Part shown: one piece after another, positions 1,521 to 22,337 of the stretch
Position numbering within the stretch: position 1 is the first letter of the stretch
Layout: each line of letters begins with the position of its first letter
Origin: a bacterium
Lineage (GTDB): Bacteria > Patescibacteriota > CPR2 > UBA1875 > JAJYID01
Assembly: GCA_030647205.1 (NCBI GenBank)
Contig: JAUSJO010000002.1
Coordinates: 177,112-241,111, forward strand
Length of the DNA stretch: 64,000 nucleotides
Reading direction: 5' to 3'
Made by a program: the position numbers and the translations under genes
The notes under the pieces: generated by a model
Database searches by the model: none
What the model saw: the letters and a program-made list of their open reading frames with translations, nothing else
Told to the model about the DNA's origin: nothing

Positions 1521-1523
1521 GAT

Positions 1524-2324
1524 ATGGCTACCAAGAAGATAATTAAAATTCTTTTTATTGCTGACATTGTCGGTAAGCCCGGCAGAAGAACAGTAAAACA
1601 AATTCTACCCGATCTGAGGGAAGAAGAAGGGATAGATTTTGTCGTTGCCAATGGTGAAAACATGACATCGGGTCATGGGATGACAAAAGGATGTATGGAC
1701 GAACTGCTGGAAGTAGGGGTAGACTTCTTCACCTCGGGAAATCATATTTGGAAAAAACCGGAGTTTTTTACCGAACTTGAGAAGAAAGAAACTCCCGTTG
1801 TAAGGCCCGCTAACTATCCAGAAGATTCTCCCGGAGTAGGCTACAAAATAGTCAAAACAAAGTTTGGTAAACTTTTGATCGTAAATCTACTGGGCCGTGA
1901 GGGCATAAACTCTAATGTTGAGTCGCCATTTAAAACCATTGACGAGATACTTGAAAAAACAAAAGGGAAATACGATCTTTCACTAGTGGACTTTCACGCT
2001 GAAGTGACAAGTGAGAAAGTAGCGTTTGGTCTCTACCTTGATGGTCGGGTCAACGTGGTGGTTGGTACACATACTCATGTTCCAACAGCAGATGCAAGAA
2101 TTTTAAAAAAAGGCACGGCGTATATTTCAGATGCGGGAATGACAGGTCCGATAGAATCTGTCTTAGGGGTAAGAGCAGATATTATTATTGAGCTCTTTAC
2201 AACCGGGATTCCTCAGAAGTTTTATCATGAGACTGAAGGCCCATGCGTTTTTAACTCAGTGATAGTTGAACTTGAAAAAAAAGGGAAGATAATCCAGATT
2301 CGGCGTATTGATAAAGAAATCTAA
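1524..2324 (+). CDS. ymdB: YmdB-family metallophosphoesterase (2',3'-cyclic nucleotide phosphodiesterase-like, TIGR00282 type)
   Basis: ILFIADIVGKPGR...VVANGENMTSGHGMT...FTSGNHIW metallophosphatase motifs; conserved rny-ymdB adjacency. Confidence 0.8.
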   Translation: MATKKIIKILFIADIVGKPGRRTVKQILPDLREEEGIDFVVANGENMTSGHGMTKGCMDELLEVGVDFFTSGNHIWKKPEFFTELEKKETPVVRPANYPEDSPGVGYKIVKTKFGKLLIVNLLGREGINSNVESPFKTIDEILEKTKGKYDLSLVDFHAEVTSEKVAFGLYLDGRVNVVVGTHTHVPTADARILKKGTAYISDAGMTGPIESVLGVRADIIIELFTTGIPQKFYHETEGPCVFNSVIVELEKKGKIIQIRRIDKEI

Positions 2325-2422
2325 GCTTATGGTTGCATGGCAATTTAATGTATGTTATAAATTTTACTACTGTGTAAATTAAATATAATTAAACAGCCTC
2401 TTTAAGGGGGATAGGAGAAAAA

Positions 2423-2695
2423 ATGACAAAACACGATTTAGTAGAATCTCTTTCAAAAGAGACCGGTTACTCAAAAAAAGAAGTTGAAGCTTGCTTGAAG
2501 ACACTGACAAGCATTATTACCGATAAGGTAAGAAACGGCGAGAAAGTTGCCATTACCGGATTTGGTACATTTGATCTTGGGAAGCGCGCTTCAAGACGAG
2601 GCAGAAACCCTCAAAACGGTGACTACATTACAATTCCGGAGATGAAAATGCCAAGATTTCGAGCCGGTAAAAACCTCAAGGAAGCTGTAAGATAA
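2423..2695 (+). CDS. hup: HU/IHF-family nucleoid DNA-binding protein
   Basis: 90 aa, GFGTF and RRGRNPQNGD DNA-binding arm motifs; RBS GGGGGATAGGAG upstream. Confidence 0.85.
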   Translation: MTKHDLVESLSKETGYSKKEVEACLKTLTSIITDKVRNGEKVAITGFGTFDLGKRASRRGRNPQNGDYITIPEMKMPRFRAGKNLKEAVR

Positions 2696-2706
2696 AATTC
2701 GTGTTA

Positions 2707-2745
2707 AAATAAAAAATGAGTGCCAAGTGCACTCTTTTTTTATTG
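2707..2745 (+). terminator. Rho-independent terminator after hup (GAGTGC-CAAGT-GCACTC stem + T7)
   Basis: inverted repeat followed by TTTTTTT read directly; convergent with tRNA-Pro 3' end. Confidence 0.55.
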
Positions 2746-2820
2746 GTCGGGGTGAGAGGACTCGAACCTCCGGCCTCCTGCTCCCAAAGCAGGCGCGCTA
2801 GCCAACTGCGCCACACCCCG
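2744..2820 (-). tRNA. tRNA-Pro (anticodon TGG)
   Basis: reverse complement folds as cloverleaf: acceptor CGGGGTG/CACCCCG, anticodon stem CCTGC/GCAGG with loop TTTGGGA, T-loop TTCGAGT, 3' CCA encoded. Confidence 0.85.
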
Positions 2821-2949
2821 TTTATCTAGGATATTATACCCCAAAAACAAGTTTTTCTAAAGTAGATTTGTGTTGTAAATTGATATAGAAAAAGATATTG
2901 TTTATTGATAGACTAATGTCTGAGATTTTAGTTAAATAGCCATACAAAT

Positions 2950-3579
2950 ATGGATTTCTATAACTTTATTGTAAGTTTCAAATACGTAGCAATCTTTATC
3001 GGCACTTTTATAGAAGGTCCGACAGTTGGTTTGATAGTGGGTTTTCTTTCAAGGGTTCACTACATTAACCTGACATTGGGTTATTTCTCCCATGTTGCCG
3101 GTGATTTGGCGGCTGATCTTGTGTACTATACAATCGGCTATTTTGGCGGAGTTAGAATTGTGCCTAGGATGGCCAGGATCCTAAGGTTTTCAGTTAAGGA
3201 TGTCGAAAATATCGAAGAATCCTTTGATAAACATAGTAAAAAGGTCATAATTTTAGGTAAAGTAACTCATGTGATCGGCCTCCCTATTTTAATAGCTGCC
3301 GGTGGTGTGCGATATAAATGGTATAAATTTATTATCTTTGACCTTATTGCCACCTTGATTAAGTCAGCAATACTTGTTTTCATCGGATATCATTTTGGAG
3401 GCTTATGGGAAAAGGCGGATAACATTATATTTATTTTTTCAGGCATCGGTTTAATAATAGTGATTGGACAGGTCAGCATATTACTTATTAGAAGGTTCAT
3501 CAAAATAAAGAATGGGGATATTAAGATAGATGGTGCAGAAGAGGAGAAGCTGTTTAAAAAATGGAGGAAAAGAAAATAA
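2950..3579 (+). CDS. DedA/VTT-family membrane protein
   Basis: multi-TM with FIEGPTVGLIVGFL motif typical of DedA/SNARE-associated family. Confidence 0.5.
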   Translation: MDFYNFIVSFKYVAIFIGTFIEGPTVGLIVGFLSRVHYINLTLGYFSHVAGDLAADLVYYTIGYFGGVRIVPRMARILRFSVKDVENIEESFDKHSKKVIILGKVTHVIGLPILIAAGGVRYKWYKFIIFDLIATLIKSAILVFIGYHFGGLWEKADNIIFIFSGIGLIIVIGQVSILLIRRFIKIKNGDIKIDGAEEEKLFKKWRKRK

Positions 3580-4772
3580 GGATTTTAATCGCTAACGAAA
3601 CATATCCCCCTAATCTCAATGGATGCGCGGTTTTTACTCAACGTTTAGCACAAAACTTAGCAAAAAGAGGTCATGAAGTTGCTGTTGTCGCTCCTGGTCT
3701 AAAGTTTGGCGATTATTTAGAAAAAGATCAATACGGCGTCAATGTTTACGGGTTGCGCTCAATCTCTGTAAAAATGATTCATCCTAATTATAGGATTGTG
3801 ACTAAAGTGGATATTACTAAATCTGTTAGAAAGATAATAGCCAAATTCCAGCCAGACATAATCCACATACAAAATCATTTTCTAGTTGGCAGATCTTGTC
3901 TGAAGATTGCCAAAAAACAAGGGATTGCAATAGTAGGTACTAACCATTTTATGCCCGAAAATTATCTTCAATTTGCACCCAAGGCTACGGAAGGAACAAT
4001 GGCTAAAGTTTTATGGGCTGATTTCTTTAAGGTTTATAACCAGCTTGATTGTGTTACCGCTCCATCGCGCGCAGCCGTTCAGATGCTATACGATGTAGGG
4101 TATAAGAAAAAGGCAGAAGTTGTTTCAAATGGCATGGAGTTTGATAAATTCAAAAAAAGACCAACAAGCGGGAAACTTTTAAAAAAGTATAAACTAGATC
4201 AGGATATACCTACATTTATCTCTGTTGGAAGGATTGAAAAAGATAAAAATTTAGATGTGATACTCGGAGCCTTTGCTCTTTATCTTGAAAAGAATGATGG
4301 GCAGTTAATACTTGTCGGTAATGGGAAGCTTGAAAAAGATCTAAAGAAGCTGTCTGTGGCTTTAGGTGTTAAGGAGAAAGTTGTTTTTACTGGTAAAATT
4401 ACCGTTGATGAAGTATTTGAAGTTTATTCTTTGGCAGATGTATATATTGGGGCCGGAACGGCAGAGCTTCAGGGACTATCGGTGATGGAGGCAATGGCGT
4501 CGGGACTTCCTATACTTGTGGTAAATGCCGTTGCGCTTCCCGAACTTGTTAAGGATGGGGCAAATGGATATCTTTTCGAACTTAGTGTAGCGGATTTAGC
4601 AGAAAAAATGGGGGAAATCTTAGAGGATAAGGTAAAAATCAAGGAAATGGGCGCAAAAAGTTTGGAGATTATCGGTGCACACGATATGGCTAATACGATT
4701 GGCAAGTTTGAGAGGATTTACGAAAAGGTTATTAAAGAAAAGAAAAAATCTTATCCAAACTCAAGGAAGTAA
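3561..4772 (+). CDS. Glycosyltransferase family 4 (GT-B fold)
   Basis: N-terminal RILIANETYPPNLNGCAVFTQRLAQNLAKRGHEV and C-terminal EAMASGLPILV...DG.NGYL motifs typical of GT4. Confidence 0.7.
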   Translation: MEEKKIRILIANETYPPNLNGCAVFTQRLAQNLAKRGHEVAVVAPGLKFGDYLEKDQYGVNVYGLRSISVKMIHPNYRIVTKVDITKSVRKIIAKFQPDIIHIQNHFLVGRSCLKIAKKQGIAIVGTNHFMPENYLQFAPKATEGTMAKVLWADFFKVYNQLDCVTAPSRAAVQMLYDVGYKKKAEVVSNGMEFDKFKKRPTSGKLLKKYKLDQDIPTFISVGRIEKDKNLDVILGAFALYLEKNDGQLILVGNGKLEKDLKKLSVALGVKEKVVFTGKITVDEVFEVYSLADVYIGAGTAELQGLSVMEAMASGLPILVVNAVALPELVKDGANGYLFELSVADLAEKMGEILEDKVKIKEMGAKSLEIIGAHDMANTIGKFERIYEKVIKEKKKSYPNSRK

Positions 4773-4840
4773 TCTTAATTGTAAAAACAATTAGTCAAAT
4801 TCACTCTACCTCCTGATAGGCATTGTATGGCAAGACCTTT

Positions 4841-4851
4841 GTGCTATAATT
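4841..4851 (+). promoter_or_regulatory. Extended -10 (TGTGCTATAAT) upstream of giant surface protein gene 1
   Basis: TGnTATAAT consensus read directly ~75 nt before GTG start. Confidence 0.4.
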
Positions 4852-4923
4852 TTATTAGGTTATAAGCAAAAAAAGCGGGGGTTTATTGTAGTAAAGAATT
4901 CATCTAATAAAAGACCAGAAAAA

Positions 4924-7900
4924 GTGGGGCCTTTCAAGTTTTTGAGTTGGATTAGGTTTCATACTACTTTTTATTTGCACATGAAAGCTCACAAAATGAC
5001 TTGGTATAAAGAGTGGCATCAGGGTCGTTTACACCATCATTTCCATATTGCTATGCTTGCGTTTTACGCCGCCAGTATCTTTTTTGGTTTACTCGGTGTC
5101 TTTATCTCGGTTACACCAAAAAATGCTCTAGCTTCTACAAATTATGAATGGAACCTTAATACACCGTCTGAATATACCTATAATCCTAGCTATATCCAAT
5201 TTAATAGTGGAGTAGCCCAATCAACGGGGTATTCTGATCTTAAGATATATGCTTACGACATGTATTGTACAGATGTAAGCACATGTTTTTTGCTTGGTGA
5301 TTATGGAGGAGGCAAGTTATACAAGACTACAGATGGTGGAGAAAATTGGGTTTCAAAGAACCCAGGAACCACGCAAAGTTTACTGAGTGCCTATTTTGCC
5401 AATGCAAATGTTGGTTATATTGCTGCAACTAACGCCACAATTACAAAAACAACAAACGGTGGGAATAACTGGTCAGCTCCCCAGACCATGCCGCCTGAGG
5501 CAACAGGACGGAGCATCTATGGTATCTACTGCAAAGATCCGGAAGGGGGAACACCCGGAGATAACTGTTATGCAGTTGGTGGAAATGGTACTACCGGCCA
5601 AAGTATTATTTTAAGGACCACGAACGGAGGAACAACATGGACCGCACAAGCTCACGAAACAGCGGGCTATACCTATTTGGATGGTATTTTCTGTACAGAC
5701 TCTAATACTTGTTATGCGGCAGGGCATAGTGGTAAGCTCTTAAAAACTACTGACGGTGGCACAACTTGGGTAGCCCAAACATCAAATACGACAAACTCTC
5801 TTTTCCGGGCTTACTGTACCGATAGTAATACTTGCTACATGTCCGGAAGTGGTGGAACAATTTTAAAAACTACTGACGGAGGATCAAACTGGGTCGTGCT
5901 GGACTCGGGTAATCCGACTGCCCTTTTTAGGGATATTCAGTTTACAGACAGCCAAACAGGTTATGCAGTAGGATATATTGGAACGAACGGTCTTATTGTA
6001 AAAACTACTGACGGTGGGGCTACCTGGGCAACAAGTTGGACAGTTCCGGCGTCTTTATCTTACTTATATGGTATAAGTTGTCCTTCTGCCAATGTCTGCT
6101 ATATTGGAGGTTTTAATCAAGTAAAAACGGTAAATGCCGGTTCGAGCTGGACACCCATAATCTATCAACCAATACCCACCATCGTTCCTAACACGAGTCA
6201 AGATTTCACTGATTTGGCTGGATTTAAGGAAACATTAGGTGTTGGGAACGTAGGCACTATTCATTATCAAATTTCAAACAATGATGGAGCAACATGGTAT
6301 TGGTATAATAGTCAAAGCTCTGCCTGGGAAATCGCATATGATAGTTATTATCAAAATACAGCCGCAGAGATAAATAGCAACATCACAACTTTTACCGGTA
6401 ATTATGGAGGAGGTACCGGAAAGTTCAAGTGGAAAGCAGTATTTTATTTAGCGAGCGGAGGAGATCAAATGAAGCTTGATAGTGTCCAATTATCTCTCAA
6501 GGGTAATACTCCAAATAAACCTGAGTCACTTACTATTTCAGATGTGTCCAATAGGGATAAAGATGTTTGGGCACTTGCGCTTTCTTGGGATTCGCCACTT
6601 CCTGGGGCAGGAGAAATTAACTTTTTCAAAATAGAACGTTCTGATAATGGCGGACCTTGGACAGAAGTCGGCACAACAAACGATGGAACAAAAAGAGCTT
6701 ATGCAGAAGTTGTCCCAAGCTCGGAAGCCACATATTCTTATAGGGTGAGGTCGGTTGACCATGACGAAGTGGGAGGAATCTATAATGACGAATCTGAGCC
6801 ATCAAATGTTGTATCAATGATGCCTACAGGAAAGTATTCCAGTTTGCCATCCTTAATCGGTACGCCAACCACGACTACAACTGCAACATCTGCTAACATA
6901 AGCTGGTCAACGGACAGGGTGTCTTCTTCAACAGTAAAATATAGTACGGATACGAGTTATACTTTTATCGCCAGCAGTCCGCAGGTTGAAGTAACTTCTC
7001 ATGCGGTTTCGCTTAAAGGTTTGTTACCGGGAACAACCTATCATTATAAGCTTCAGTCACTTGATACTGAAAGGACCTACGGAACCGATGTTTACTATAC
7101 TGGTGAATATACTTTAACAACCCCATCTGCAACTGAAATATCCGGCTTAAAAATTTATGATATTCTCTCTGGCAGCGCCCTTGTTTCTTGGCAGACAAGC
7201 ACTGATATGGCGACTATCCTTTATTATGGAAAAGACAATAGCTATGGTACAACCATTGAGGCAAATAGCGGCACAAATCATGTAGCGAAGCTGATAGGAC
7301 TTCAAGATAACACCACCTACCATTTAAAAGTGAGCGGGACGGATGCCGGGGGTAATGCTATCCATTCAGATGACTACTCCTTCGAGACCTTGGCTTTGCC
7401 TAAAGCGACAAACATTGACTTTCAGGAGCTCAGAGATAGGCCTTCTTCAACTATAAAAATCACCTGGGAAACAAACATACCCACTTCCTCAGTGGTTGAG
7501 TATTCGGAGTCCGGAGGTAAACCTCAGGAAGTATCCGCTTATCAGCTTGTCACAAAACATGAGATGGTTGCATCGGGGCTAAAGGATAAAGATGAGTATA
7601 CTATGACCATAAAAGGACGTGATGCGTTCGGTAATGAGGTTACAACCTCGCCCCAAAAAGTAAAAACAGATATTGATGCAAGGCCGCCCGAGATTTCAGA
7701 AATCACTACAGAAACATCTATTGATGGTTATGGATCTGGCGCCAAGGCTCAGATGATTGTTTCTTGGTCTACTGATGAACCGGCGACATCACAAGTTGAG
7801 TACTCAAAAGGAGATGACGGAAAAAATCTAAGTATGGTAACTCAGGAAGACCCTTCTCTTACTACTTCTCATGCGGTAGTGATTTCCGGTCTTGAGCCAT

Positions 7901-8070
7901 CGACCTCTTATTATTTTCGTATAGTTACCAAGGATAGATCTACAAATGAGACAAAGTCAGAACTTAAGTCAGCCTTGACCGATCAAATTCGTCTTTCTAT
8001 TTTTGATATTATGTTGAAATCATTTGAGTCAACTTTGGGCTGGCTTTTTGGGGTTCAGAGTATTAACTAA
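4924..8070 (+). CDS. Giant secreted/surface protein 1: His-rich N-terminal segment + TM anchor, 7-bladed Asp-box (BNR/Ycf48-like) beta-propeller, array of fibronectin-III-like domains, conserved C-terminal motif
   Basis: repeated TTDGGxxW / TTNGGxxW Asp-boxes (x7), FN3-like units with YxYxxxSxD...S.S.TVxYSTDTSY...TSHAVSLKGLLPGTTYHYK; N- and C-termini paralogous to ORF 10940..15730. Confidence 0.75.
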   Translation: MGPFKFLSWIRFHTTFYLHMKAHKMTWYKEWHQGRLHHHFHIAMLAFYAASIFFGLLGVFISVTPKNALASTNYEWNLNTPSEYTYNPSYIQFNSGVAQSTGYSDLKIYAYDMYCTDVSTCFLLGDYGGGKLYKTTDGGENWVSKNPGTTQSLLSAYFANANVGYIAATNATITKTTNGGNNWSAPQTMPPEATGRSIYGIYCKDPEGGTPGDNCYAVGGNGTTGQSIILRTTNGGTTWTAQAHETAGYTYLDGIFCTDSNTCYAAGHSGKLLKTTDGGTTWVAQTSNTTNSLFRAYCTDSNTCYMSGSGGTILKTTDGGSNWVVLDSGNPTALFRDIQFTDSQTGYAVGYIGTNGLIVKTTDGGATWATSWTVPASLSYLYGISCPSANVCYIGGFNQVKTVNAGSSWTPIIYQPIPTIVPNTSQDFTDLAGFKETLGVGNVGTIHYQISNNDGATWYWYNSQSSAWEIAYDSYYQNTAAEINSNITTFTGNYGGGTGKFKWKAVFYLASGGDQMKLDSVQLSLKGNTPNKPESLTISDVSNRDKDVWALALSWDSPLPGAGEINFFKIERSDNGGPWTEVGTTNDGTKRAYAEVVPSSEATYSYRVRSVDHDEVGGIYNDESEPSNVVSMMPTGKYSSLPSLIGTPTTTTTATSANISWSTDRVSSSTVKYSTDTSYTFIASSPQVEVTSHAVSLKGLLPGTTYHYKLQSLDTERTYGTDVYYTGEYTLTTPSATEISGLKIYDILSGSALVSWQTSTDMATILYYGKDNSYGTTIEANSGTNHVAKLIGLQDNTTYHLKVSGTDAGGNAIHSDDYSFETLALPKATNIDFQELRDRPSSTIKITWETNIPTSSVVEYSESGGKPQEVSAYQLVTKHEMVASGLKDKDEYTMTIKGRDAFGNEVTTSPQKVKTDIDARPPEISEITTETSIDGYGSGAKAQMIVSWSTDEPATSQVEYSKGDDGKNLSMVTQEDPSLTTSHAVVISGLEPSTSYYFRIVTKDRSTNETKSELKSALTDQIRLSIFDIMLKSFESTLGWLFGVQSIN

Positions 8071-8095
8071 AAAGTATTTTTAAGGATACAAAAAC

Positions 8096-10057
8096 ATGTC
8101 AGATAAAGAACCACTGCTAATAGTTAAGAACATCAAAAAAAGATTCCTTGTTGGTAAAAGGGAAGTAAATGTTTTAAAGGGGGTTAATCTTGAGATAGAT
8201 CCCGGTGATTTTATTATAATAATCGGTCCATCAGGAAGCGGGAAAACCACACTTTTAAATACGATATTAGGACTTGAAAAACCCGATGAGGGGGAAATCA
8301 TTATCTCCGGTAAAAATATTTATAGTATGGATGAAGATAAAAGAGCTTATTTCAGGCGGGAAAAATTTGGTGTTGTTTATCAGCAATCGAACTGGATTAA
8401 ATCTCTAAATGTGATAGATAATGTTGCTTTTCCTCTGTCTATATCGGGTTTATCGCCCAAGACGATTAGGCGTAAAGCAAAAGAGATACTTTATCTTTTC
8501 AATTTTGATAAGTTTTCAAAGTATAGGCCGTCAGAACTTTCAGGGGGAGAACAGCAAAAACTTTCTGTTTGTCGAGCGCTTATTTCTGATCCACCCATAA
8601 TTTTAGCTGATGAGCCAACCGGCAATCTTGATTCTATCACAGCGGATGATTTGATGTATGACCTAAGGACCCTCAATGTTGAATCTAAAAAAACTATGAT
8701 TATGGTAACTCATAACCCTGATTATGAGAGATATGCTACAAAATTTGTTTGTATGGAAGATGGGGTTATCAAGAGTGTCAAAGTAAAAAGAAAAAATCTT
8801 TTGCAGACAGAGAAATCGATCAAAAAAACGGTTAACATATCTAAATATAGTTTTTGGATGAAGCTATGGTTTCTTTTAAAGTTATCTTTTAAAAATTTCA
8901 AAAAAAACAAAATGAGAACTCTTCTGACGTCAGGTGGCGTAGCCCTAAGTATTGGTTTTATTGCTTTTTTAGTTTCGCTTAGCTATGGTTTTCAAAATCT
9001 TTCTACGGAGGGGATCAAGAAAATGGAAGCGTTTCAGATGCTAGATGTTGATACGGGAAAATCGAAAATAGCCAATATAGATGATGAAGCTATTAAAAAA
9101 ATCTCAAACATTTTTGGGGTTGAGAAGGTGTATCCTTCAGTAAGTGTCGCCGGCGATTTCACTTTTCATGATAAAAAAATAAATGGGATTATATATGGTA
9201 GAGATATCGAAACCTTGAAAATAGAGAGGCCGAGAATCGTTGCGGGGGAGTCGTTTTCTTCAGATACATCCGAAGAAGTTATCCTAAATATAGTGCTAGC
9301 CAAGAAATTGGGGATGAGTAGTCCTGGCTCAATTGTTGGACAGAACATTGAAGTGAATACGATTATTCGTCCGGAGCTTCTAGAAAATGGCGGGGAAAAC
9401 TTCAAGTCTGATAATAGGCAATACAAAATAGTGGGACTAGTCGAAGAGGGTAACGCTCCGTATGTTTATACTCCTTTGGGGAGTTTGAAAAAAATGGGGA
9501 TTGTCAACTATAGCGAAGCAAAGGTTAAAACAACGACTCCGGACAATATAGATAGGATTAAGTCCCTCATAGAGCGCATGGGTTTCAAGGCAAGCTCAAT
9601 AAAGGATACGGTCGATCAGGCAAATCAGTTTTTTGGTATATTTAGAATGATTTTAGTCGTCTTTGGTATCATTGCAATTGCTGTTTCTTGCGTTGGGATG
9701 TTCAATACTTTGACCATTTCCCTAATCGAAAAAACTCGGGAGATAGGTGTCATGAAATCTATGGGGGCAACAAAGAAAGATGTGAGAAATATTTTTATTC
9801 TTGAAGCTTTATTTGTTGGTGTTATAGGGGGCTTATCGGGGGTGGCTCTTAGCTATCTTTTGGGAGAATTCTTTAATACCAGTATATATGCCCTAGCAAG
9901 ATCAACAGGTAATGAACCGGTTAAAATATTCATCTTTCCGCCGAATCTGCTGATATTCTCAGTGCTTCTGTCTTTGCTAATCAGTATTCTCACGGGTATT
10001 TATCCCGCAAGAAGGGCCTCAAAGATTAGCGCACTGGATGCTCTAAGGTATGAGTAG
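8096..10057 (+). CDS. MacB-like fused ABC ATPase + FtsX-family permease (single 653-aa ORF)
   Basis: Walker [10 protein letters not shown], signature [15 protein letters not shown], Walker [12 protein letters not shown], then in-frame FtsX permease ([16 protein letters not shown]..., 4 TM with large extracytoplasmic loop); paralogous to split pair 15764/16532. Confidence 0.8.
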
Positions 10058-10355
10058 TAAAACAAGCGAAGTTTATAAAGTAGTTTCTGACATTCCCAAA
10101 GGCAAAGTGATGACTTATGGGCAGATTGGGGAAATCTTGAGCATGAATCCGAGACTAGTTGGCAGAATATTACACGAAAATCCGGATCCGGAAACTGTCC
10201 CTTGTCATAGAGTAGTAAACTCACGTGGTGAGGTGGCAGAAAAATATGCATTTGGCGGAGGGGATGCTCAAAGACAGAAGTTAAAGCAAGAAGGCGTTGA
10301 GTTTGTTGGTAACAGAGTAAATATTGAAAAAAGCTTTTACAAAAGAAATCATTGA
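10050..10355 (+). CDS. MGMT-family protein (O6-alkylguanine-DNA alkyltransferase DNA-binding/active-site domain only)
   Basis: VPCHRVV active-site Cys motif and preceding HTH region GQIGEIL; start overlaps upstream stop (ATGAGTAG). Confidence 0.6.
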   Translation: MSSKTSEVYKVVSDIPKGKVMTYGQIGEILSMNPRLVGRILHENPDPETVPCHRVVNSRGEVAEKYAFGGGDAQRQKLKQEGVEFVGNRVNIEKSFYKRNH

Positions 10356-10381
10356 CTTCGTCAAGAAAAGGGTGTATTATA
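10353..10381 (+). promoter_or_regulatory. Sigma70-like promoter (TTGACT-17-TATTAT) for RRM-protein gene with ~75-nt structured leader
   Basis: TTGACTtcgtcaagaaaagggtgTATTAT read directly; leader contains GAACGG...CCGTTTT hairpin just before start. Confidence 0.5.
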
Positions 10382-10460
10382 CGGGGGAACTAGAGAGCTC
10401 GCGATATTTAAGTAGATTTTTTCGAACGGATACCCGGGGGTTTCAAAGGGTTCCGTTTTA

Positions 10461-10760
10461 TTGTTTAAGAAAGGAAAAGCATTGGAAACAGAAGCAAACA
10501 AGCTATATGTCGGAAACCTGCCTTACAGCATGACCGACGAGTCTTTGGCAGAACTTTTCACCTCATTTGGTGAAGTTACCGAAGCAAAAGTCATTTCTGA
10601 CAAGTTTTCCGGTCGTTCAAAAGGCTTTGGTTTCGTAACCATGGCTGATGAGAAAATGGCCGAGAAAGCTATCGCTGAAATGAATGGCAAGGAAGTTGAA
10701 GGACGAGCAATCGTTGTCAACGTTTCAAGACCAAAAGAACCAAGACCAAACAGATACTAA
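10461..10760 (+). CDS. RRM-domain RNA-binding protein (glycine-poor bacterial Rbp type)
   Basis: RNP-2 LYVGNL and RNP-1 KGFGFVTM motifs. Confidence 0.8.
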   Translation: MFKKGKALETEANKLYVGNLPYSMTDESLAELFTSFGEVTEAKVISDKFSGRSKGFGFVTMADEKMAEKAIAEMNGKEVEGRAIVVNVSRPKEPRPNRY

Positions 10761-10788
10761 GATATCTTTAAAATCTTGATTTAAAAGA

Positions 10789-10822
10789 AAAATACCTCGA
10801 AAGGGGTATTTTTCTTTTTGGG
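10789..10822 (+). terminator. Rho-independent terminator after RRM gene
   Basis: AAAAATACCTCGAAAGGGGTATTTTTCTTTTT hairpin + T-run. Confidence 0.6.
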
Positions 10823-10939
10823 ACTTTTTGTTTTTCATTTATTTTGTTTGTGATATAATTTTTATATACTGTTTAAGGCAAAAGAAGGGAGGGTTGGATC
10901 GAGCCAAAGAAATCCCTTAGAAAAAGTAGGAAGATATCT

Positions 10940-13900
10940 ATGAGAGTGAAATCTCTTAAGTTTTTACGTAGTTTGAGGTTTCATACTACTTTTGCTTTGC
11001 ATTTAAAAGCCCACAAAAATAGCTGGTACAAAGAGTGGCACCAGTGGCGTTTTCATCATCATTTCCATGCGGCAATGTTTGTTTTTTATACTGTAAGTGT
11101 TCTTTTGGGATCTTTTGCAACACTGCTTCCGAACGCCAACAATAAAGCATTGGCAGCAGCCCTGAACTATGATCAAACTTTTGATACCGGAACCGGACTG
11201 ACATACGATAGCAGTAAAATAAATATCCCCGGTGATGGTTTGGCTACCTTAAAATCCCATACGCCAGGCAGTGACTGGATAGCGACAGATAATGATGGTG
11301 GATACAACTGGAGTTATAGGAAGGCTATCACTATCACAAATCCGAATGCCACGAATGACTTTCAGGTCCAGCTGACTGGTATAGATACGGTTTTGGGCGG
11401 GAAAGTGCAAGCTAATTGCTCCGACATGCGTTTTACCTCTGATAATGGTGTGACTGTTATACCACATTGGGTTGAGTCCACAAGTTGCCCATCTGCCTCT
11501 ACTACGATATGGGTAAAGGTGCCTGCCACGAAGACAACCATATACATGTATTATGGAAATTCAAAACCAGAGTGGATGGCAAGAGAAACTAATCGCACTT
11601 GGCGTGGTGTGGCATCTTCCTCAGACGGCACCAAACTGGCAGCAGTAGTCAATGGCGGTCAAATATATACTTCAACTGACTCCGGCGCCACCTGGACCCC
11701 AAGAGATTCTAGCCGTGCCTGGTGGAACATCACCTCTTCTTCAGATGGCACCAAACTGGCAGCAACAGTCAACAACGGCCAAATATATACTTCAACTGAC
11801 TCCGGCGCCACATGGACTCCGAGAGAGTCTAGTCGTGGTTGGGACGCAATGTCTTCCTCCTCAGATGGCACCAAGCTGGCAGCAGCAGTTTGGGGTGGTC
11901 AAATATATATTTCAACTGACTCCGGCGCCACTTGGGCAGCCAGAGCTTCTAGTCAAAACTGGGCCAGTGTTAGTCTCTCTTCAGACGGCACAAAAATAGT
12001 GGCAACAGCGGATAGTAGCCAAATCTACACAACGACTATACCCAGTAGTGATACGGCGGTATTTGAGGATGTTATTAGTAATGTGCAGGGTGCCTGGGAA
12101 ATGGGTGATAATCCAGGGGGTGCGGGCGTGGATTCATCTGGTAATAACCTTACAAGCACACTGAACGGTACAGCTGAAGTCAGCGATAGGAATAGTAGAA
12201 CCGCCAAAGCTCGCAACTATGCTGCCGGTGGTGATGGTGTAGATAATATAACAGTAAGTGACAATACTGTTATAAGGCCAACACCAGGAACTGTGATTAC
12301 CCTTTCAGTTTGGGCCCGATCTGGTGATAACACCGACACTTCTTATATTATAAAGAAAAAAGAAACTTATTCTCTAAGGATTCTTGCAGATGGGACGATA
12401 AATACCAATTTCTTTATTGCTAGTGCGTGGAGGACGTGCTCAAGTGCAGTTGGTGCCTTCCCAGAAACCAACACATGGACTCATCTAGCTGTAACCTATG
12501 ACACTGTGGGTGGCTCATATAAGATCTACAAAAATGGAACAGAGGTTGCCTCCTGTCCAGCTCAAACAGGCGATATCTCGTCCGTGACTAACACGGAATT
12601 GCTACTGGGTACCTATAACTTTGTTAATAATGACTGGAATGGTGATCTGGATGATATAAGGGTTTACAACAAGGTTTTGCCTGTTGCAGATATGCAGAAG
12701 CTTGCAGTGACCTCAAATATAAGTGAGTTCAGTACCGCGCATCCAAATATGGAATATGTCAAGAAGTATACCGCCGGTCTAAGCGTCGGCGCACCAAGCA
12801 GTGAAGAGGGGATTGTCTATAATGACAACCCCAGTATAGGTAATACAGCAGCGATAAACATGAGTAAGCTCGTGGGCTTTACGGGGACGGCCGGCGGTGG
12901 CTCGACCGGCACTTTCGAATATCAGTTATCACCGGACAATGGGGCTCATTGGTATGAATGGTTTGAAGGTGATGATTGGTATGAAGTGACAGGATCAACT
13001 AGTACTATTGACCAAGCCGCTGTTGATCAGTTTAACGAGAGGTTTGCCACGCCCGACACAGCTGGTTATATACAGTTCAAGTGGAGAGCCGTTTTAATTT
13101 CTAATGGGACGCTTAGCCAGATACCTAAACTCGACGAGGTTACTTTTAGCTATTATTATGATACGGCGGATCCGGACAATGTAGTCCAGTCTGATGCTTC
13201 ATATGGAGGTAACTCACTAAATCAAGCGAGTTATTATAACTACATCCAGCCTATATTTGACTGGTCTTCATATGCTCCACTTGATAATAATAGTGGAGGA
13301 GGAGAGTCAAACTCCGGCATAGACGGCTACTATGTTTTATTCTGTAGTACCGCATTGAACAACGACACTGACTGTAATCCGGCAACTAATGGATATTCCA
13401 CTTACACAACAGGTACGACATATACTGCGCCTGACATGACAGGATGGACAAGTGATAACTATTATCTAAGAATAAAAACCAAAGATAAGGCTGGAAACAT
13501 ATCTGATACCACCTCAGTTCCCTTCGTTTATCATTTTGACGTTAATAAACCTACTAATCCCCCAACGCTTACTAGAACTCCATATGCTCCGACAGATGTA
13601 CAAAACAACTTCCGTTTTGACTGGTCGGGAGCAACAGATCCTGACCCAGACGGAGCGGGGTCACTTGAAGCTTCGGGGATAGCCAAGTATCAATGGCGAA
13701 GAGCAATCGATGATCCTGTAACCGGCTGGACAGACACTGTTAATACCTATGCTACAGGTGTCTCTGCCTATCAAATTGGTGAAAACTTGTTCTATGTCAG
13801 GACAGTTGATAATGCTGGGAATGTTGCGGATGGCTATAGCCAGATCAGATATCTCTGGTCCGGAAATGCTCCGCCGGCTCCGACAAATCTCGAAGTAGTC

Positions 13901-15730
13901 CAAAATGACGAAGCGGGCAACATTCAGCGTTTTAGATGGAAGGCGCCGACTCATGATGAAGCTATCCAGGAATATCGTTATGCGGTAAATGTAGCTGATA
14001 TGAATGAAAATAATACCGTTAGCGTAGACCCGACTCCTGACGGATCAGGCTGGATATATACGCCGGTGGGCTCCTATGGAACCCAACAGGGGACAAATAC
14101 TTTCCGGGTAGTGGCGAAAGACGTCCTAAATCAGGTTAACTATACTTACTTTGCTCCGATAGAGTTTAATGTTTCAACCCCCGGACCGGGCTTTCCGACA
14201 GCTCCTGTGATCTCTGATATATCAAACATGGATACCAGCAAATGGGCTCTTGCCCTTTCGTGGGATGCTCCGTCTTCAGGCGGGACACAGGTGGCTAGCT
14301 ATGCTATCCAAAGAACGACAACCCCCGCCGATGATAACAGCTGGGCAGACTTAGCGACTACAATATCTACCGTGTATGCCGATAACTATCAGCTGAACAA
14401 TACAACCACATACTACTATCGAATCCTTTCTGTTGATAATGCCGCAAAGAGAAGTACCCCGTCTGATGTAATCTCAAGGATGCCAACAGGCAAGTATTCT
14501 ACCAAACCGGCAATAGTTACGGGTCCAGCCGCTTCTACTACAGCCACTTCAGCAACTATCACATGGTCTACGGGGCGCGAAGCAACTTCGTTTGTTAAAT
14601 ACGGGGTTGGCAGTTTCGGTTCCTCGGTCGGTTCAAACACGCTAGCTACAACTCATTCAGTCGCTCTTGCCGGCCTAAACCCAGGCACAACATATACCTA
14701 CAAGGTTCAGTCTTTTGATGAGCAAAGAGAATACAATATTAATGACGAAAGCTCATGGTCTCCAACAATAACTTTCTCTACTCAGGCTGCTCCAGGCATC
14801 TCCGATGTAAAAATATCAGATATCCGTCTTGATAGCGCTATCATAACCTGGAAAACTACATCATCTGCCACCTCAACACTTAAGTACGGCAAGTCAAACT
14901 CATATGGCAAAGAAATATCCGACTCTTCCGGTTCAGCCGTAACAACTCACACGGTAAAGCTTTCAGGTTTAGATAATTCATCTACTTATCACTTTAAGAT
15001 TTTTGGTACAGACACGGATGGTAACCAGATGCAATCGGATGATTACAATTTTGACACTCTAACATTCCCGAGAGTCTCAAATGTCAAGTTTGATCAAATA
15101 AAAAATACAGCTACGTCGACGCTGAAAGTAGCATGGGATTCAAATGTTCCTATTTCTTCAACGGTCAGGTATACCGATCCAACAGGAAAAACAATCGAGG
15201 CATCCCAGTCGCAGCTTGTAACCAAGCATGAAATGGTTGTTTCAGGTTTGAAAGATAACACCGAGTATAGCATGGCCGTAAGTGGCAGAGATGCATACGG
15301 CAACGAGGGTACATCGGGGAGTGAGAAAGTAAAAACAGACTTTGATACCAGACCGCCAGCAATATCAGAAATTACTACTGAAACATCGATCAACGGCTAT
15401 GGCACAGATGCTAAAACACAGATGATAGTTTCCTGGAACACTGATGAACCGTCAACTTCTCAAGTTGAGTATGCCAAGGGTGTTTCCGGAGACACATTCT
15501 CCCTTGCAACCCAAGAAGACACAAACCTTACAACCTCACATGTTGTAGTTGTCAGTGATCTTGACCCGTCAAGTTCGTACTACTTCAGAGTGGTTTCCAA
15601 GGATAATTCAAAAAATGAGGCAAAGTCAGAAACCAACTCAGCTCTAACCGAACAAGCCCGTTCATCCGTTTTTGATATAGTGCTGAAATCATTTGAGTCA
15701 ACTTTAGGTTGGCTTTTTGGTGGCCGTTAA
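10940..15730 (+). CDS. Giant secreted/surface protein 2: same His-rich N-terminus + TM anchor, Asp-box repeats (4 tandem 40-aa units), LamG/ConA-like lectin-type domain, long FN3-like array, same C-terminal motif
   Basis: N-term LKFLRSLRFHTTFALHLKAHKNSWYKEWHQWRFHHHFH and C-term SVFDIVLKSFESTLGWLFG nearly identical to ORF 4924..8070; STDSGATW Asp-boxes; C-terminal ~450 aa collinear with protein 1. Confidence 0.75.
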   Translation: MRVKSLKFLRSLRFHTTFALHLKAHKNSWYKEWHQWRFHHHFHAAMFVFYTVSVLLGSFATLLPNANNKALAAALNYDQTFDTGTGLTYDSSKINIPGDGLATLKSHTPGSDWIATDNDGGYNWSYRKAITITNPNATNDFQVQLTGIDTVLGGKVQANCSDMRFTSDNGVTVIPHWVESTSCPSASTTIWVKVPATKTTIYMYYGNSKPEWMARETNRTWRGVASSSDGTKLAAVVNGGQIYTSTDSGATWTPRDSSRAWWNITSSSDGTKLAATVNNGQIYTSTDSGATWTPRESSRGWDAMSSSSDGTKLAAAVWGGQIYISTDSGATWAARASSQNWASVSLSSDGTKIVATADSSQIYTTTIPSSDTAVFEDVISNVQGAWEMGDNPGGAGVDSSGNNLTSTLNGTAEVSDRNSRTAKARNYAAGGDGVDNITVSDNTVIRPTPGTVITLSVWARSGDNTDTSYIIKKKETYSLRILADGTINTNFFIASAWRTCSSAVGAFPETNTWTHLAVTYDTVGGSYKIYKNGTEVASCPAQTGDISSVTNTELLLGTYNFVNNDWNGDLDDIRVYNKVLPVADMQKLAVTSNISEFSTAHPNMEYVKKYTAGLSVGAPSSEEGIVYNDNPSIGNTAAINMSKLVGFTGTAGGGSTGTFEYQLSPDNGAHWYEWFEGDDWYEVTGSTSTIDQAAVDQFNERFATPDTAGYIQFKWRAVLISNGTLSQIPKLDEVTFSYYYDTADPDNVVQSDASYGGNSLNQASYYNYIQPIFDWSSYAPLDNNSGGGESNSGIDGYYVLFCSTALNNDTDCNPATNGYSTYTTGTTYTAPDMTGWTSDNYYLRIKTKDKAGNISDTTSVPFVYHFDVNKPTNPPTLTRTPYAPTDVQNNFRFDWSGATDPDPDGAGSLEASGIAKYQWRRAIDDPVTGWTDTVNTYATGVSAYQIGENLFYVRTVDNAGNVADGYSQIRYLWSGNAPPAPTNLEVVQNDEAGNIQRFRWKAPTHDEAIQEYRYAVNVADMNENNTVSVDPTPDGSGWIYTPVGSYGTQQGTNTFRVVAKDVLNQVNYTYFAPIEFNVSTPGPGFPTAPVISDISNMDTSKWALALSWDAPSSGGTQVASYAIQRTTTPADDNSWADLATTISTVYADNYQLNNTTTYYYRILSVDNAAKRSTPSDVISRMPTGKYSTKPAIVTGPAASTTATSATITWSTGREATSFVKYGVGSFGSSVGSNTLATTHSVALAGLNPGTTYTYKVQSFDEQREYNINDESSWSPTITFSTQAAPGISDVKISDIRLDSAIITWKTTSSATSTLKYGKSNSYGKEISDSSGSAVTTHTVKLSGLDNSSTYHFKIFGTDTDGNQMQSDDYNFDTLTFPRVSNVKFDQIKNTATSTLKVAWDSNVPISSTVRYTDPTGKTIEASQSQLVTKHEMVVSGLKDNTEYSMAVSGRDAYGNEGTSGSEKVKTDFDTRPPAISEITTETSINGYGTDAKTQMIVSWNTDEPSTSQVEYAKGVSGDTFSLATQEDTNLTTSHVVVVSDLDPSSSYYFRVVSKDNSKNEAKSETNSALTEQARSSVFDIVLKSFESTLGWLFGGR
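11590..12012 (+). repeat. Four tandem ~120-nt coding repeats (40-aa Asp-box unit SSSDGTKLAA.VNGGQIYTSTDSGATWTPR.SSR.W) inside giant protein 2
   Basis: near-identical blocks beginning tcagacggcaccaaactggc at ~11621, 11741, 11861, 11981. Confidence 0.85.
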
Positions 15731-15763
15731 AGGTAAGATAGAAGGTAGTTAGCGAGGGTAAAT

Positions 15764-16531
15764 ATGACAAAAAAACGAATACCGACAGTAGAGATAAAAA
15801 ACCTTAAAAAGAGCTTTTTCGTAGGTAAAGAGGAAATCCCGGTTTTAAAGGGTCTCGACTTCACTATAGATTTTGGAGAGTTTGTTGTGATCCTTGGACC
15901 ATCGGGTTGCGGGAAAAGCACACTACTTAATACTATTTTGGGGCTTGAGCAGCCGACTGAAGGACAAGTTCTTATTAGGGGCAAAGAAGTATACTCTATG
16001 GATGAAGATGGGCGCGCATCTTTCAGACGCCAGAAGTTTGGTATGGTTTATCAACAGCCGAACTGGATCAGATCTCTTAATGTAATAGAAAACGTTGCTT
16101 TCCCTTTACACGTATCAGGTACACACCATCAAACAGCTATGAGTAAAGCAAAGAATATTCTCTATCTCTTTAAGTTTGATAAGTTTGAAAAATATTATCC
16201 GATGGAGCTCTCGGGAGGACAACAGCAGAAACTATCAGTTTGCCGAGCACTTATTACAAATCCTTGGATTATTATGGCAGATGAGCCGACCGGTAATCTT
16301 GATACGGTGACAGCTGAGGACTTGATGTATGACCTTAAGGTGTTGAATGCTGAGTCAAAAAGAACAGTGATAATGGTTACTCACAACCCGGAATATGAGA
16401 GATACGCAACCAAACTGATTTATATGGAGGATGGCTTGATCAAAAATATAAAGCAAAAGAGCAAACCCTTGATATCTTCAGAAGAAGAGGAGAGAGTGGT
16501 CGACTTGGCCGAAGGGGAGGGAATAGTATAG
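15764..16531 (+). CDS. ABC transporter ATP-binding protein (MacB/LolD/FtsE-like)
   Basis: Walker [10 protein letters not shown], signature [15 protein letters not shown], Walker [13 protein letters not shown]-loop VTHNP. Confidence 0.85.
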
Positions 16532-17731
16532 ATGAAATTTCGATTTATTATAAAACTAGCTTTTAAAAATCTCAAAAGGTACAAGCTGAGGACCTTCTTG
16601 ACTGCCGGAGGCGTAGCTATAAGTATCGGTTTTATATCTTTTTTGACTGCACTTGGCTATGGACTTCAGAAGGTTTCAACAGACCAAATCGCAAATATGG
16701 AAGCTCTTCAGATACTCGATGTTGACACAGGAAAATCAAAAATTGTAGCTGTAAATGAGGAGGCAGTTAGGAACATCTCAAACCTTTTTGGTGTTGAAAA
16801 AGTTTACCCTATGGTGTCAGTTGCTGGAGATCTAAGTCTTCAGGGGTCAAAGGTTGATGGTATAGTTTATGGGAAATCGCAGGGTATTTTAGAGATTGAA
16901 AAACCGAATGTGATTGTTGGGAAATCATTCACATCCGACTCGGCGGAGGAAGTTCTCGTCAATATCGCTGCTGCTAAGAAACTTGGAGTAGCAAACTATG
17001 CAGACTTAGTTGGTAGAGATTTGACTCTAAACATGGTTTTGAGGCCTGAGCTCATTGGGGGTGATCAAAAAGTCTCTAAAAGGGAGACAAGAAAATATAG
17101 AGTTGCGGGAATTTTGGAAGAAGGTAACTCCCCCTATGTCTATCTTCCGCTTAATAACTTCAAAGCTTTGGGGGTTACAAGTTATAGCGGTGCAAAGGTA
17201 AAAACTACAAGCCGTGAAAACGTAGACAAGATTAAAGTTTTGATAGAACATATGGGATTTAAGGTTAGCTCCATCAAAGATACGATTGATCAAGTAAACC
17301 AGTTTTTTGGTGTATTCCGCATGGTTTTAACCGGCTTTGGTGTGATTGCTGTTATTGTCTCATGCATCGGCATGTTTAACACTCTGACTATCTCCTTGAT
17401 TGAAAAAACCAGAGAAATAGGAATAATGAAATCACTAGGGACAACTAAGAAAGATATCAAAAGAATATTTATCTCAGAAGCCCTTCTAATAGGAATGGTT
17501 GGCGGTGTTACGGGTATAGCTGTGAGTATGATTCTTGGAGAAATATTTAATGCAAGCATTTATGCTTTAGCAAACTCTACTGGGAATACTCCGGTGAAGA
17601 TATTTATTTTCCCGCCTGAACTTCTGATTGTCGCACTAGTGCTTTCAGTTTTAATCAGTTTTCTTACAGGGGCTTATCCATCTAGAAGAGCATCGAGGAT
17701 CAGTGCTCTAAATGCTCTGAGGTATGAATAA
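16532..17731 (+). CDS. FtsX-family (MacB-type) permease with large extracytoplasmic domain
   Basis: N-terminal TM, ~230-aa loop, three C-terminal TM; ends ...SALNALRYE like other FtsX permeases in window. Confidence 0.8.
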   Translation: MKFRFIIKLAFKNLKRYKLRTFLTAGGVAISIGFISFLTALGYGLQKVSTDQIANMEALQILDVDTGKSKIVAVNEEAVRNISNLFGVEKVYPMVSVAGDLSLQGSKVDGIVYGKSQGILEIEKPNVIVGKSFTSDSAEEVLVNIAAAKKLGVANYADLVGRDLTLNMVLRPELIGGDQKVSKRETRKYRVAGILEEGNSPYVYLPLNNFKALGVTSYSGAKVKTTSRENVDKIKVLIEHMGFKVSSIKDTIDQVNQFFGVFRMVLTGFGVIAVIVSCIGMFNTLTISLIEKTREIGIMKSLGTTKKDIKRIFISEALLIGMVGGVTGIAVSMILGEIFNASIYALANSTGNTPVKIFIFPPELLIVALVLSVLISFLTGAYPSRRASRISALNALRYE

Positions 17732-18191
17732 ATACAAATTTATTAAAAAATTGAAAGAAAAAAAGGAAACAGGGTTTACCCTGATAGAAATCGTGGTTGT
17801 CATGGCTATTATTGCTGTTTTAGCGGTATTAGTTGTGGGAGCTATCAGTATCGCGAGAAACATGACCAAGGAGACAACACACCGAGCAAACGCAAGAAGT
17901 ATCCAGACCGGGATGGAGGCATATTATTCCAGAAATAGGCAGTTTCCGCCCGCTACGGAGGGAGGGAATGGTCTCTTTGGAAGCGAGAGTATTTCTTTTG
18001 AAATGGTTGCGGCAAATGATCCAGAATATCTAAACGTATCACTTAGTCCCGCATCTGAATGTGATGGTCCCGATGAATGGGGGGATGGGGGTGGACAGGT
18101 TTGGATAACAACGGATAGGCAGCATTATACAATCACTCCATATGACTCTGGTTGTAGCGACGAGATGATTAAGGACAGACTAATGCAGTAA
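17724..18191 (+). CDS. Type IV pilin / pseudopilin (prepilin with class-III signal peptide)
   Basis: leader MNKYKFIKKLKEKKETG followed by FTLIEIVVVMAIIAVLAVLVV (G|FTLIE prepilin peptidase site); start overlaps permease stop. Confidence 0.75.
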   Translation: MNKYKFIKKLKEKKETGFTLIEIVVVMAIIAVLAVLVVGAISIARNMTKETTHRANARSIQTGMEAYYSRNRQFPPATEGGNGLFGSESISFEMVAANDPEYLNVSLSPASECDGPDEWGDGGGQVWITTDRQHYTITPYDSGCSDEMIKDRLMQ

Positions 18192-22262: not shown

Positions 22263-22337
22263 GCGGGTATTGTATAATGGCTATTATGTCACCCTTCCAA
22301 GGTGAAGATGCGGGTTCGATCCCCGCTACCCGCTCCA
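22263..22337 (+). tRNA. tRNA-Gly (anticodon TCC)
   Basis: acceptor GCGGGTA/TACCCGC, anticodon stem TCACC/GGTGA loop CTTCCAA, T-loop TTCGATC, CCA encoded; promoter GGTATAAT at ~22244. Confidence 0.7.

Follow-up and report, generated by a model that had tools for sequence, protein, structure and literature searches.

Giant FN3-stalk proteins paired with MacB-type ABC transporters form a recurrent cassette in Patescibacteria

A 64,000-nt stretch of a Patescibacteria genome (assembly GCA_030647205.1, contig JAUSJO010000002.1, positions 177,112 to 241,111; hereafter the window) carries two neighbouring modules, in each of which the gene for a giant protein is followed by an ATP-binding cassette (ABC) transporter of the MacB/FtsX type. 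An earlier note, made by reading this DNA, had listed the open reading frames (ORFs) of both modules and of a pilin-like gene behind them, all on the forward strand, and ORF calling confirmed their coordinates. In module 1, giant1 (4924-8070, 1048 aa, GTG start) is composed of a leader, a seven-bladed BNR/Asp-box propeller, an array of fibronectin type III (FN3) and Pur_ac_phosph_N domains and a C-terminal tail helix, and its companion (8096-10057, 653 aa) joins an ATPase and a MacB-type permease in a single frame. In module 2, giant2 (10940-15730, 1596 aa) combines a leader, a DUF2341 domain, 3.2 copies of a 40-aa BNR-like repeat, a LamG domain, an FN3 array and a tail helix, and is followed by separate genes for an ATPase (15764-16531, 255 aa) and a MacB-type permease (16532-17731, 399 aa). 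Both giant genes, one per module, are intact.

The stop codon of giant2 and the start of the module 2 ATPase are only 33 nt apart, with no terminator-like site between them. A promoter and terminator scan placed a terminator-like site and an extended -10 element as a pair 5' of giant2 and no terminator-like site in the gaps between giant and ABC genes, although the counts were not above the shuffled expectation. The GenBank entries for the locus proteins include MDO8507178, MDO8507181.1 (giant2) and MDO8507183.1 (the module 2 permease); giant2 is labelled 'DUF2341 domain-containing protein' and the permease 'ABC transporter permease'. The nearest relatives carry the labels Candidatus Saccharibacteria, candidate division WS5 or Patescibacteria group.

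The two giants differ in their N-terminal heads and resemble each other elsewhere. BLASTP aligned them at 50% identity across 532 C-terminal residues (E 1e-152), and the first ~60 residues align as well. Within this region, the conserved array, with Pfam matches to fn3 and Pur_ac_phosph_N in both proteins, spans residues 521-1024 of giant1 (6484-7995) and 1074-1575 of giant2 (14159-15664). The shared array had been recognized before and put at about 450 aa; in the wider family, the conserved C-terminal region is longer (~800 aa). Regarding the heads, giant1 contains a PSII_BNR propeller (Pfam 1.5e-18) with seven Asp-boxes, as had been claimed, while giant2 has DUF2341 and LamG by Pfam and, in 3.2 copies of a 120-nt repeat, three exact STDSGATW motifs instead of the four units counted earlier. 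This BNR-like repeat (11614-11995) recurs at 55–65% identity in giant proteins from Verrucomicrobia, Planctomycetes and other groups, and a search with full-length giant2 was dominated by unrelated proteins carrying such repeats and returned no further family members on the same contig. The closest solved folds to the C-terminal FN3 pair of giant2 are the tandem FN3 stalks of cell-surface receptors. According to recent papers, Patescibacteria proteins of very large size with FN3, LamG and DUF2341 domains are probably surface adhesins (PMC13059738, PMC11809585).

Both ends of the giants appear to be maintained by selection. The statement that most nucleotide differences in the shared N-terminal segment are synonymous did not survive a count of its core, which gave 12.7 synonymous against 15.3 nonsynonymous differences; the accompanying claim that the segment is coding and selected did. 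Between giant1 and giant2, the proportion of synonymous sites that differ (pS) in the leader core is 0.63 and that of nonsynonymous sites (pN) is 0.15, a ratio of 0.24, and pN/pS in the tail is 0.32, so both termini are coding and under purifying selection.

The tail helix lies at 7996-8052 in giant1 (SIFDIMLKSFESTLGWLFG, followed by 5 residues) and at 15665-15721 in giant2 (SVFDIVLKSFESTLGWLFG, followed by 2 residues). AlphaFold2, run with a 71-sequence alignment, folded the last 231 residues of giant2 into two FN3 sandwiches, with a predicted local distance difference test (pLDDT) score above 90, and then one free helix at residues 212-228. A profile of the last 235 residues retrieved 142 proteins; those named by taxon belong to Patescibacteria (Saccharibacteria, Berkelbacteria, WWE3 and Dojkabacteria), apart from more distant matches, which include FN3-redoxin proteins of Chloroflexi. 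These distant matches aside, every protein with an intact C-terminus ends in the same kind of tail. The consensus of 75 unique tails is S-[VI]-[LF]-x-I-[IV]-[LF]-x-[ST]-L-x3-F-G-[WF], with F or L at position 0 in 73 and G at +1 in 69, and in most of them the tail stops 0–10 residues from the C-terminus. The tail, a sharply conserved ending on proteins that otherwise vary, is 17 residues long and amphipathic, with a hydrophobic moment of 0.39 compared with 0.22 for shuffled tails. Its longest run lacking charged or amide residues has a median length of 7, with 14 as the maximum, and the helix is both too short and too polar for crossing a membrane.

No Pfam or NCBIfam model, those of sorting domains included, matched the tail, the Pfam scan having been extended to E ≤10. 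As a single amphipathic helix whose co-occurring gene is an ABC pair, it departs from the tripartite sorting signals of the LPXTG, PEP-CTERM and GlyGly-CTERM types. LPXTG adhesins of Gram-positive bacteria are comparable in overall layout, with a signal peptide, a distal binding domain, a repeat stalk and a C-terminal element read by a membrane machine; in contrast, the tail has no LPXTG-like motif with a transmembrane helix and a basic cluster behind it, and the machine beside it is an ABC ATPase and not a transpeptidase.

The association between giants and ABC genes was examined in loci fetched from other genomes and metagenomes (labelled L001–L165), starting from either partner. In the permease-first search, comparison of an alignment of four permeases with GTDB species genomes gave 284 relatives, from which 79 loci were retained. 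Wherever the upstream sequence was readable, the gene 5' of the ATPase almost always encoded a protein of 600–2900 aa ending in the tail, and across these 20-kb loci no other large protein carried the tail except a second, tandem giant. In the tail-first search of Joint Genome Institute (JGI) metagenome contigs, 79 loci were kept out of more than 569 relatives; all 78 complete C-termini bore the tail, and of the 70 loci in which enough DNA followed, at least 66 (94%) had an ATPase and a MacB-type permease directly 3'. This adjacency holds across Patescibacteria, from Saccharibacteria to Berkelbacteria. The earlier note would have been refuted by terminal motifs in many unrelated proteins without linked ABC/FtsX genes; what was found is the opposite, namely linkage in both search directions. 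The termini, of which the N-terminal one was previously described as unique, in fact recur in many other Patescibacteria genomes.

As the earlier note proposed, each giant has its own MacB/FtsX-type ABC system and the two systems are paralogous: within the window, identity is 67% between the ATPases and 61%, without gaps, between the permeases. Whole modules have been duplicated and passed on as units. Several genomes contain two or three modules. Orthologues of giant1 and its fused MacB were found in L003 and L006, where a 1044-aa giant is 54% identical over its full length and the fused MacB 64% identical. The module 2 permease shares 75–79% identity with the split permeases of L003 and L005, compared with the 61% to its paralogue in the window. 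The two modules are therefore old paralogues, each of which has kept its own ABC. The order of the modules is swapped between the window and its closest relatives, the loci L003, L006 and L165, which have the DUF2341/LamG giant and its split ABC ahead of the BNR giant and its fused MacB. Synteny is preserved on L165, a contig of candidate division WS5, with the neighbourhood VTT, glycosyltransferase family 4 (GT4), MGMT-like, RRM, giant, ATPase, permease and BNR-giant.

Regarding the transporter, module 1 is a true in-frame fusion of ATPase and permease and module 2 consists of split genes, with Pfam E-values for modules 1 and 2, respectively, of 1.4e-31 and 6.7e-33 (ABC_tran), 1.4e-14 and 2.5e-17 (MacB_PCD) and 1.2e-23 and 9.9e-23 (FtsX). 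Residues 8-652 of the fused protein align end to end with the solved MacB structure 5LIL (E 1.8e-63). In the module 2 ATPase, the Walker A, signature, Walker B and H-loop motifs are intact, and among 111 non-redundant modules, Walker A is conserved in all 111, Walker B in 109 and the H-loop in 110. The sequence hallmarks of a Type VII ABC transporter are therefore found here: the ABC ATPase motifs and a permease with a first transmembrane helix (TM1), a large extracytoplasmic MacB_PCD domain and FtsX-type TM2-4. The NCBIfam models of named members gave scores far below their cut-offs, as was the case for MacB (265 against 966), lolCE (82 against 362), LolD (196–202 against 308), FtsX_Gpos (56 against 225), FtsX_Gneg (52 against 255) and FtsE (173–179 against 265), and for this reason the transporter is not an equivalog of any of them. 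Judged by this comparison of domains and motifs, it is a member of the MacB/FtsX (Type VII) superfamily, and would be predicted to assemble as a dimer and to act by long-range mechanotransmission on ATP binding.

Members of this superfamily act by mechanotransmission at the outer face of the membrane, usually together with a dedicated partner (PMC12646458, PMC5985334, PMC7668044). All four Type VII ABC systems of Escherichia coli have a dedicated periplasmic partner (FtsEX-EnvC, LolCDE-LolA, MacAB-TolC and YbbAP-TesA), and in YbbAP-TesA the partner gene adjoins the transporter genes (PMC12646458). We lean, with moderate confidence, towards reading each module in the same terms, as an ABC transporter of Type VII with a dedicated giant partner that is exported by Sec, works outside the cytoplasm and would offer its C-terminal helix as a handle. 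The giant would leave the cell by the Sec pathway through its own N-terminal signal, which in some members has a His/Trp-rich extension, and signal peptidase would probably cut after the conserved AxA site. The mature protein would then begin, at its N-terminal and distal end, with variable heads for binding (beta-propellers, LamG, DUF2341), followed by the conserved FN3 stalk and, at the very end, the 17-residue amphipathic helix. The cognate ABC would recognize this helix on the outside of the membrane, most likely through its periplasmic core domain, and would spend cytoplasmic ATP to hold, move or extract it, thereby anchoring and actuating the giant or releasing it. If the leader is cleaved, no conserved element other than the tail helix remains that could hold the giant at the cell.

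The earlier note had suggested a dedicated pathway of export, processing or anchoring for the giants. The tie between each giant and its own ABC, and the standing of the two termini as candidate signals, are upheld by our comparative data, whereas export through the ABC is disfavoured. The MacB fold works on the outside of the membrane rather than translocating proteins. Given that the transporter has this fold from end to end and that the giants have N-terminal signals of their own, their passage through the ABC is unlikely. A scheme like type 1 secretion, in which the tail would act as a secretion signal without being cleaved and the giant would cross the membrane through the ABC, as LapA and SiiE do through LapB and SiiF, seems very improbable to us. 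It can point to a superficial parallel with the LapA-LapBCE and SiiE-SiiCDF systems, in which a giant repetitive adhesin with special N- and C-terminal elements, among them a conserved C-terminal signal, is likewise encoded next to a dedicated ABC. Those systems, in contrast, use another ABC fold, their substrates have RTX repeats and no Sec signals, and they need a membrane fusion protein (MFP) and an outer-membrane channel. In the cassette, Pfam gave no match to an ABC_membrane-type exporter domain and no RTX repeats in the window giants or in 28 giants of the family. Among all the neighbours of both window modules, as well as in L001, L002, L083, L084 and L165, we detected no gene for an MFP (HlyD/MacA family) or an outer-membrane factor.

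The LolCDE and MacAB-TolC systems share with the cassette the permease architecture of TM1, a periplasmic core domain and TM2-4. LolCDE also pulls a membrane-embedded protein end from the outer leaflet, which makes it a plausible model for what could happen to the tail helix. The differences from these systems are that the cassette has no lipobox, LolA, MFP or TolC and that the organism has no outer membrane.

The FtsEX systems (with EnvC, PcsB, CwlO or RipC) are similar to the cassette in another respect: an FtsX-family permease and its ATPase transport nothing and use ATP to move a dedicated partner, which binds the permease ectodomain through helices and is encoded nearby in several cases. 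The ABC could then be an FtsEX-like switch for cell wall remodelling, or a housekeeping transporter (division, peptide resistance, immunity) that shares a gene order with the giant and no physical coupling. The ABC parts do score weakly against FtsE, FtsX, LolD and bacteriocin-ABC models, and the MacB-type pairs of cultivated Saccharibacteria have no giant gene upstream. We nevertheless find such an explanation hard to credit, as the FtsX and FtsE scores reported above are far from their cut-offs, and the ectodomain is MacB_PCD, the FtsX extracellular domain not being reported by Pfam. The partner is an FN3-stalk protein of 600–2900 aa without a hydrolase or activator domain (LytM, CHAP and NlpC included) in the 28 giants scanned, whose candidate handle is a single C-terminal helix and not a coiled coil. 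Moreover, a housekeeping ABC would not be expected to duplicate together with each giant paralogue, or to keep 94% adjacency across lineages.

YbbAP-TesA offers a precedent for the logic followed here, since its MacB-like ABC and co-located periplasmic partner were first linked through gene neighbourhood and coevolution. TesA, however, is a small esterase that receives extracted lipids, while the cassette partner is giant, non-enzymatic and adhesin-like, and belongs to a single-membrane organism. By analogy with TesA, the ABC might extract a small hydrophobic or glycolipid substrate and exchange it with domains of the giant, the tail serving only for docking. Type VII ABCs do act on lipids, lipoproteins, haem and antibiotics at the outer leaflet (PMC12646458, PMC5985334), and domains of carbohydrate-binding type (LamG, BNR propellers, DUF2341) are present in the giants. 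In the 28 giants scanned with Pfam, though, neither catalytic nor lipid-binding domains were detected, the part conserved beside the tail is a plain FN3 stalk, and the heads vary between paralogues while the ABC is conserved, a combination that fits poorly with a shared small substrate. We therefore regard the handing over of a substrate as improbable.

The N-terminal leader is the second conserved element of the giants. The earlier note had drawn attention to a common N-terminal segment, and in our alignment of the two proteins, 34 of its 67 columns are invariant. Its His/Trp-rich motif covers R11-H41 of giant1 (RFHTTFYLHMKAHKMTWYKEWHQGRLHHHFH; 4954-5046) and R13-H43 of giant2 (10976-11068). 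Directly behind it, and read from the sequence as candidate Sec h- and c-regions, follow a hydrophobic stretch and an AxA site: I42-V63 and A68-L-A70 in giant1 (5047-5133), and A44-L63 and A70-L-A72, which the leader alignment also covers, in giant2 (11069-11155). A profile built from the two leaders and searched against 1.84e9 representative proteins gave 14 matches, every one of them N-terminal, and all seven matches available at full length (1316–2730 aa) carry the tail at their C-terminus. When 23 divergent giants were aligned, H21, W29, Y30, H34 and H43 were invariant, and W33, H39 and A72 nearly so. The leader can be generalized as H-x7-WY-xx-WH-x4-H-x3-H, followed by about 20 hydrophobic residues, helix breakers and a small-x-Ala site. 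By the strict pattern, the motif is present in 22 of 68 linked giants, and overall in roughly a third to a half of them, while family giants that lack it have ordinary signal peptides with AxA. Wherever the leader was found, it was confined to tail-bearing giants. A Pfam scan of three leaders (E ≤10) and an NCBIfam scan gave no match.

The elements of a Sec signal peptide are visible in the leader: a basic n-region, a hydrophobic h-region and small residues at -3 and -1. Given this layout and the ordinary signal peptides of the motif-less giants, it looks like an extended Sec signal peptide. The transmembrane anchor that had been assigned to this segment is thus not the reading we adopt, although the h-region, at about 20 aa, is long enough for one; across the 23 divergent giants, the Ala at -1 of AxA is nearly invariant, and the peptide is probably cleaved there. 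No lipobox is evident after the hydrophobic stretch, as AxA is followed by A, S or L and not by Cys. Known precedents are the extended signal peptide region (ESPR) and the YSIRK/GXXS and KxYKxGKxW signals, which are also long, conserved, basic and aromatic extensions placed before a normal signal peptide and found only on very large surface proteins. The cassette leader differs from them in its four conserved His and its WYxxWH motif, in its lineage and in having no Pfam match.

MFP-family partners of MacB are N-terminally anchored. An anchor of this kind would turn the giant into an adaptor, whose uncleaved hydrophobic stretch and cytoplasmic His/Trp motif pack on the ABC, as the MacA transmembrane helix does with MacB, leaving the tail for oligomerization or for contact with the wall or membrane. 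The leader is conserved far beyond normal n-regions, with five invariant residues, three of them His, in very divergent giants. Its restriction to tail-bearing giants would suit an adaptor too, as would the AlphaFold2 model of giant2, in which predicted helices at residues 2-26, 28-35 and 39-60 form a helix, a helix and a transmembrane helix (pLDDT 81–91 over residues 11-60). Nevertheless, giants without the motif keep both the tail and the ABC linkage with plain signal peptides, and the conserved small-x-Ala site and helix breakers after the hydrophobic stretch are as found at signal peptidase I sites. We consider an anchored adaptor unlikely and continue to prefer a Sec-exported giant with a C-terminal handle.

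If the ABC recognizes the tail through its periplasmic core domain, the two might be expected to diverge together. Distances between tail helices track those of the periplasmic core domain (partial rho 0.29) more than those of the transmembrane part or the ATPase (0.14 and 0.16) in 96–98% of bootstraps, a weak preference that the adjacent FN3 segment does not show. Several observations weigh against the handle, beginning with this one: the signal is small and could also stem from the periplasmic core domain being more variable. Mutual information between tail and permease, with average product correction and across 111 modules, was not above the negative control of tail and ATPase. In addition, linkage has exceptions. 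Among the tail-first loci, L098, L147 and L161 have no ABC directly downstream, and among six loci looked up individually, where four showed ABC linkage, L082 and L085 have none. Two tandem tail-bearing giants precede a single ABC in L003 (43-9067), L030 (3-9118), L047 (3-9112), L054 (54-9189), L065 (2-9087) and L070 (1-9204), which means that giants and ABCs do not always pair one to one. Finally, the cultivated Saccharibacteria for which transposon sequencing (Tn-seq) data are available appear to be without the cassette, as no PF16656 protein is listed for them, and the Tn-seq study in question (PMC10633639) does not cover it. A phenotype thus cannot be borrowed from these strains. Their essential 'FN3' protein SEML1_0890 was considered as a family member and rejected, being 195 aa long and unrelated.

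A more specific picture can be drawn from the handle, although we offer it tentatively and think it rather doubtful as a whole. The ABC might act as a motor at the base of an FN3-stalked adhesin, gripping the tail helix and pulling, repositioning or releasing the adhesin at the expense of ATP, which could help an episymbiont to attach to its host cells, exert tension on them or detach from them, while the cleaved leader might stay behind in the membrane as a small metal-binding subunit or regulator of the complex.

The gene behind module 2 (17724-18191, 155 aa) overlaps the permease stop by 8 nt and is probably co-transcribed with the module. It has the prepilin cleavage and methylation motif followed by a hydrophobic helix that define type IV pilins (Pfam N_methyl 3.3e-07; TIGR02532 26.9 against a cut-off of 16.3), and it scores below the NCBIfam cut-offs for ComGC and GspG. 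The earlier note had listed it with the modules, but it is not a conserved part of the cassette: a downstream pilin occurs at only 1 of 86 family permeases, that of this window. A 161-aa ORF 3' of the permease in L165 was also considered as a pilin and rejected, as it is the N-terminus (leader) of the next giant.

Other genes accompany the cassette. One of them (10050-10355) begins within the stop of the fused MacB gene and encodes 101 aa made up of nothing but an MGMT-type DNA_binding_1 domain, in which a PCHR active-site motif is present; L165 has this small gene too, ahead of the RRM gene and the giant. A small RRM_1 RNA-binding protein is encoded beside the cassette in the window (10461-10760), in L002 (19278-19613) and in L165 (4608-4880). 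A VTT/DedA gene and GT4 glycosyltransferase genes (2950-4772 in the window) are further conserved neighbours. Elsewhere in the window, we identified a bacterial class A RNase P RNA (52429-52799, 208 bits), seven tRNA genes, including a Gly-Arg-His cluster (22263-22505) and an Arg-Lys pair (32130-32297), and a 2-kb stretch of raised G+C (0.51) at 30–32 kb.

Variation was also observed among the fetched loci. In L128, a second tail-bearing giant, and not an ABC, lies directly downstream of the first. One subfamily of Saccharibacteria, with tails ending in FGFLG (L039, L041, L052, L053, L055 and L062), encodes, 3' of the permease and at ~11.2–14.3 kb of these loci, a membrane protein of ~390 aa and then a protein of ~630 aa whose end resembles a histidine-kinase ATPase domain. 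In L082 (ERZ1286166 contig_2871, 66-5259), the giant gene is apparently broken into several ORFs, and these tail-bearing FN3 gene fragments are followed by a T4SS_pilin/TrbC-like gene and not by an ABC pair. A 594-aa tail protein with an ABC pair was found in L033 and L037, which are binned as Coxiellaceae/Gammaproteobacteria and are most likely mis-binned Patescibacteria contigs.

In the literature on giant, FN3 and ABC proteins of Patescibacteria, the candidate phyla radiation (CPR) and Saccharibacteria, we found no description of the cassette or of either motif. As far as gene content and homology allow, the cassette appears to be new as a combination of a Type VII ABC with a dedicated giant partner, and it would bring with it two undescribed signals of sorting type. 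It is common, with more than 569 relatives of the tail region in JGI metagenomes and 284 of the permease in GTDB species genomes. A genome often has several copies of it, and their products are among the largest proteins of these tiny genomes. Current labels of such proteins go no further than 'DUF2341 domain-containing' or 'fibronectin type III domain-containing'. Both signals, the tail helix and the WYxxWH/His leader, are ready for use in annotating them and permit targeted experiments.

Patescibacteria (CPR), which account for a large fraction of bacterial diversity, live on other microbes, to which they attach by largely unknown molecules. Widespread as it is among Patescibacteria, the cassette suggests that surface proteins are handled there by a system that runs on ATP and is so far undescribed. 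Type VII ABCs are now understood through four E. coli systems and a few from Firmicutes. If our reading of the cassette is true, it would represent a fifth kind, devoted, in an organism with a single membrane, to a giant surface protein, and would widen the known scope of the mechanism. Should the ABC prove to be the motor of an adhesin, the cassette would define a new functional class of Type VII ABC and a new pair of protein-sorting signals.

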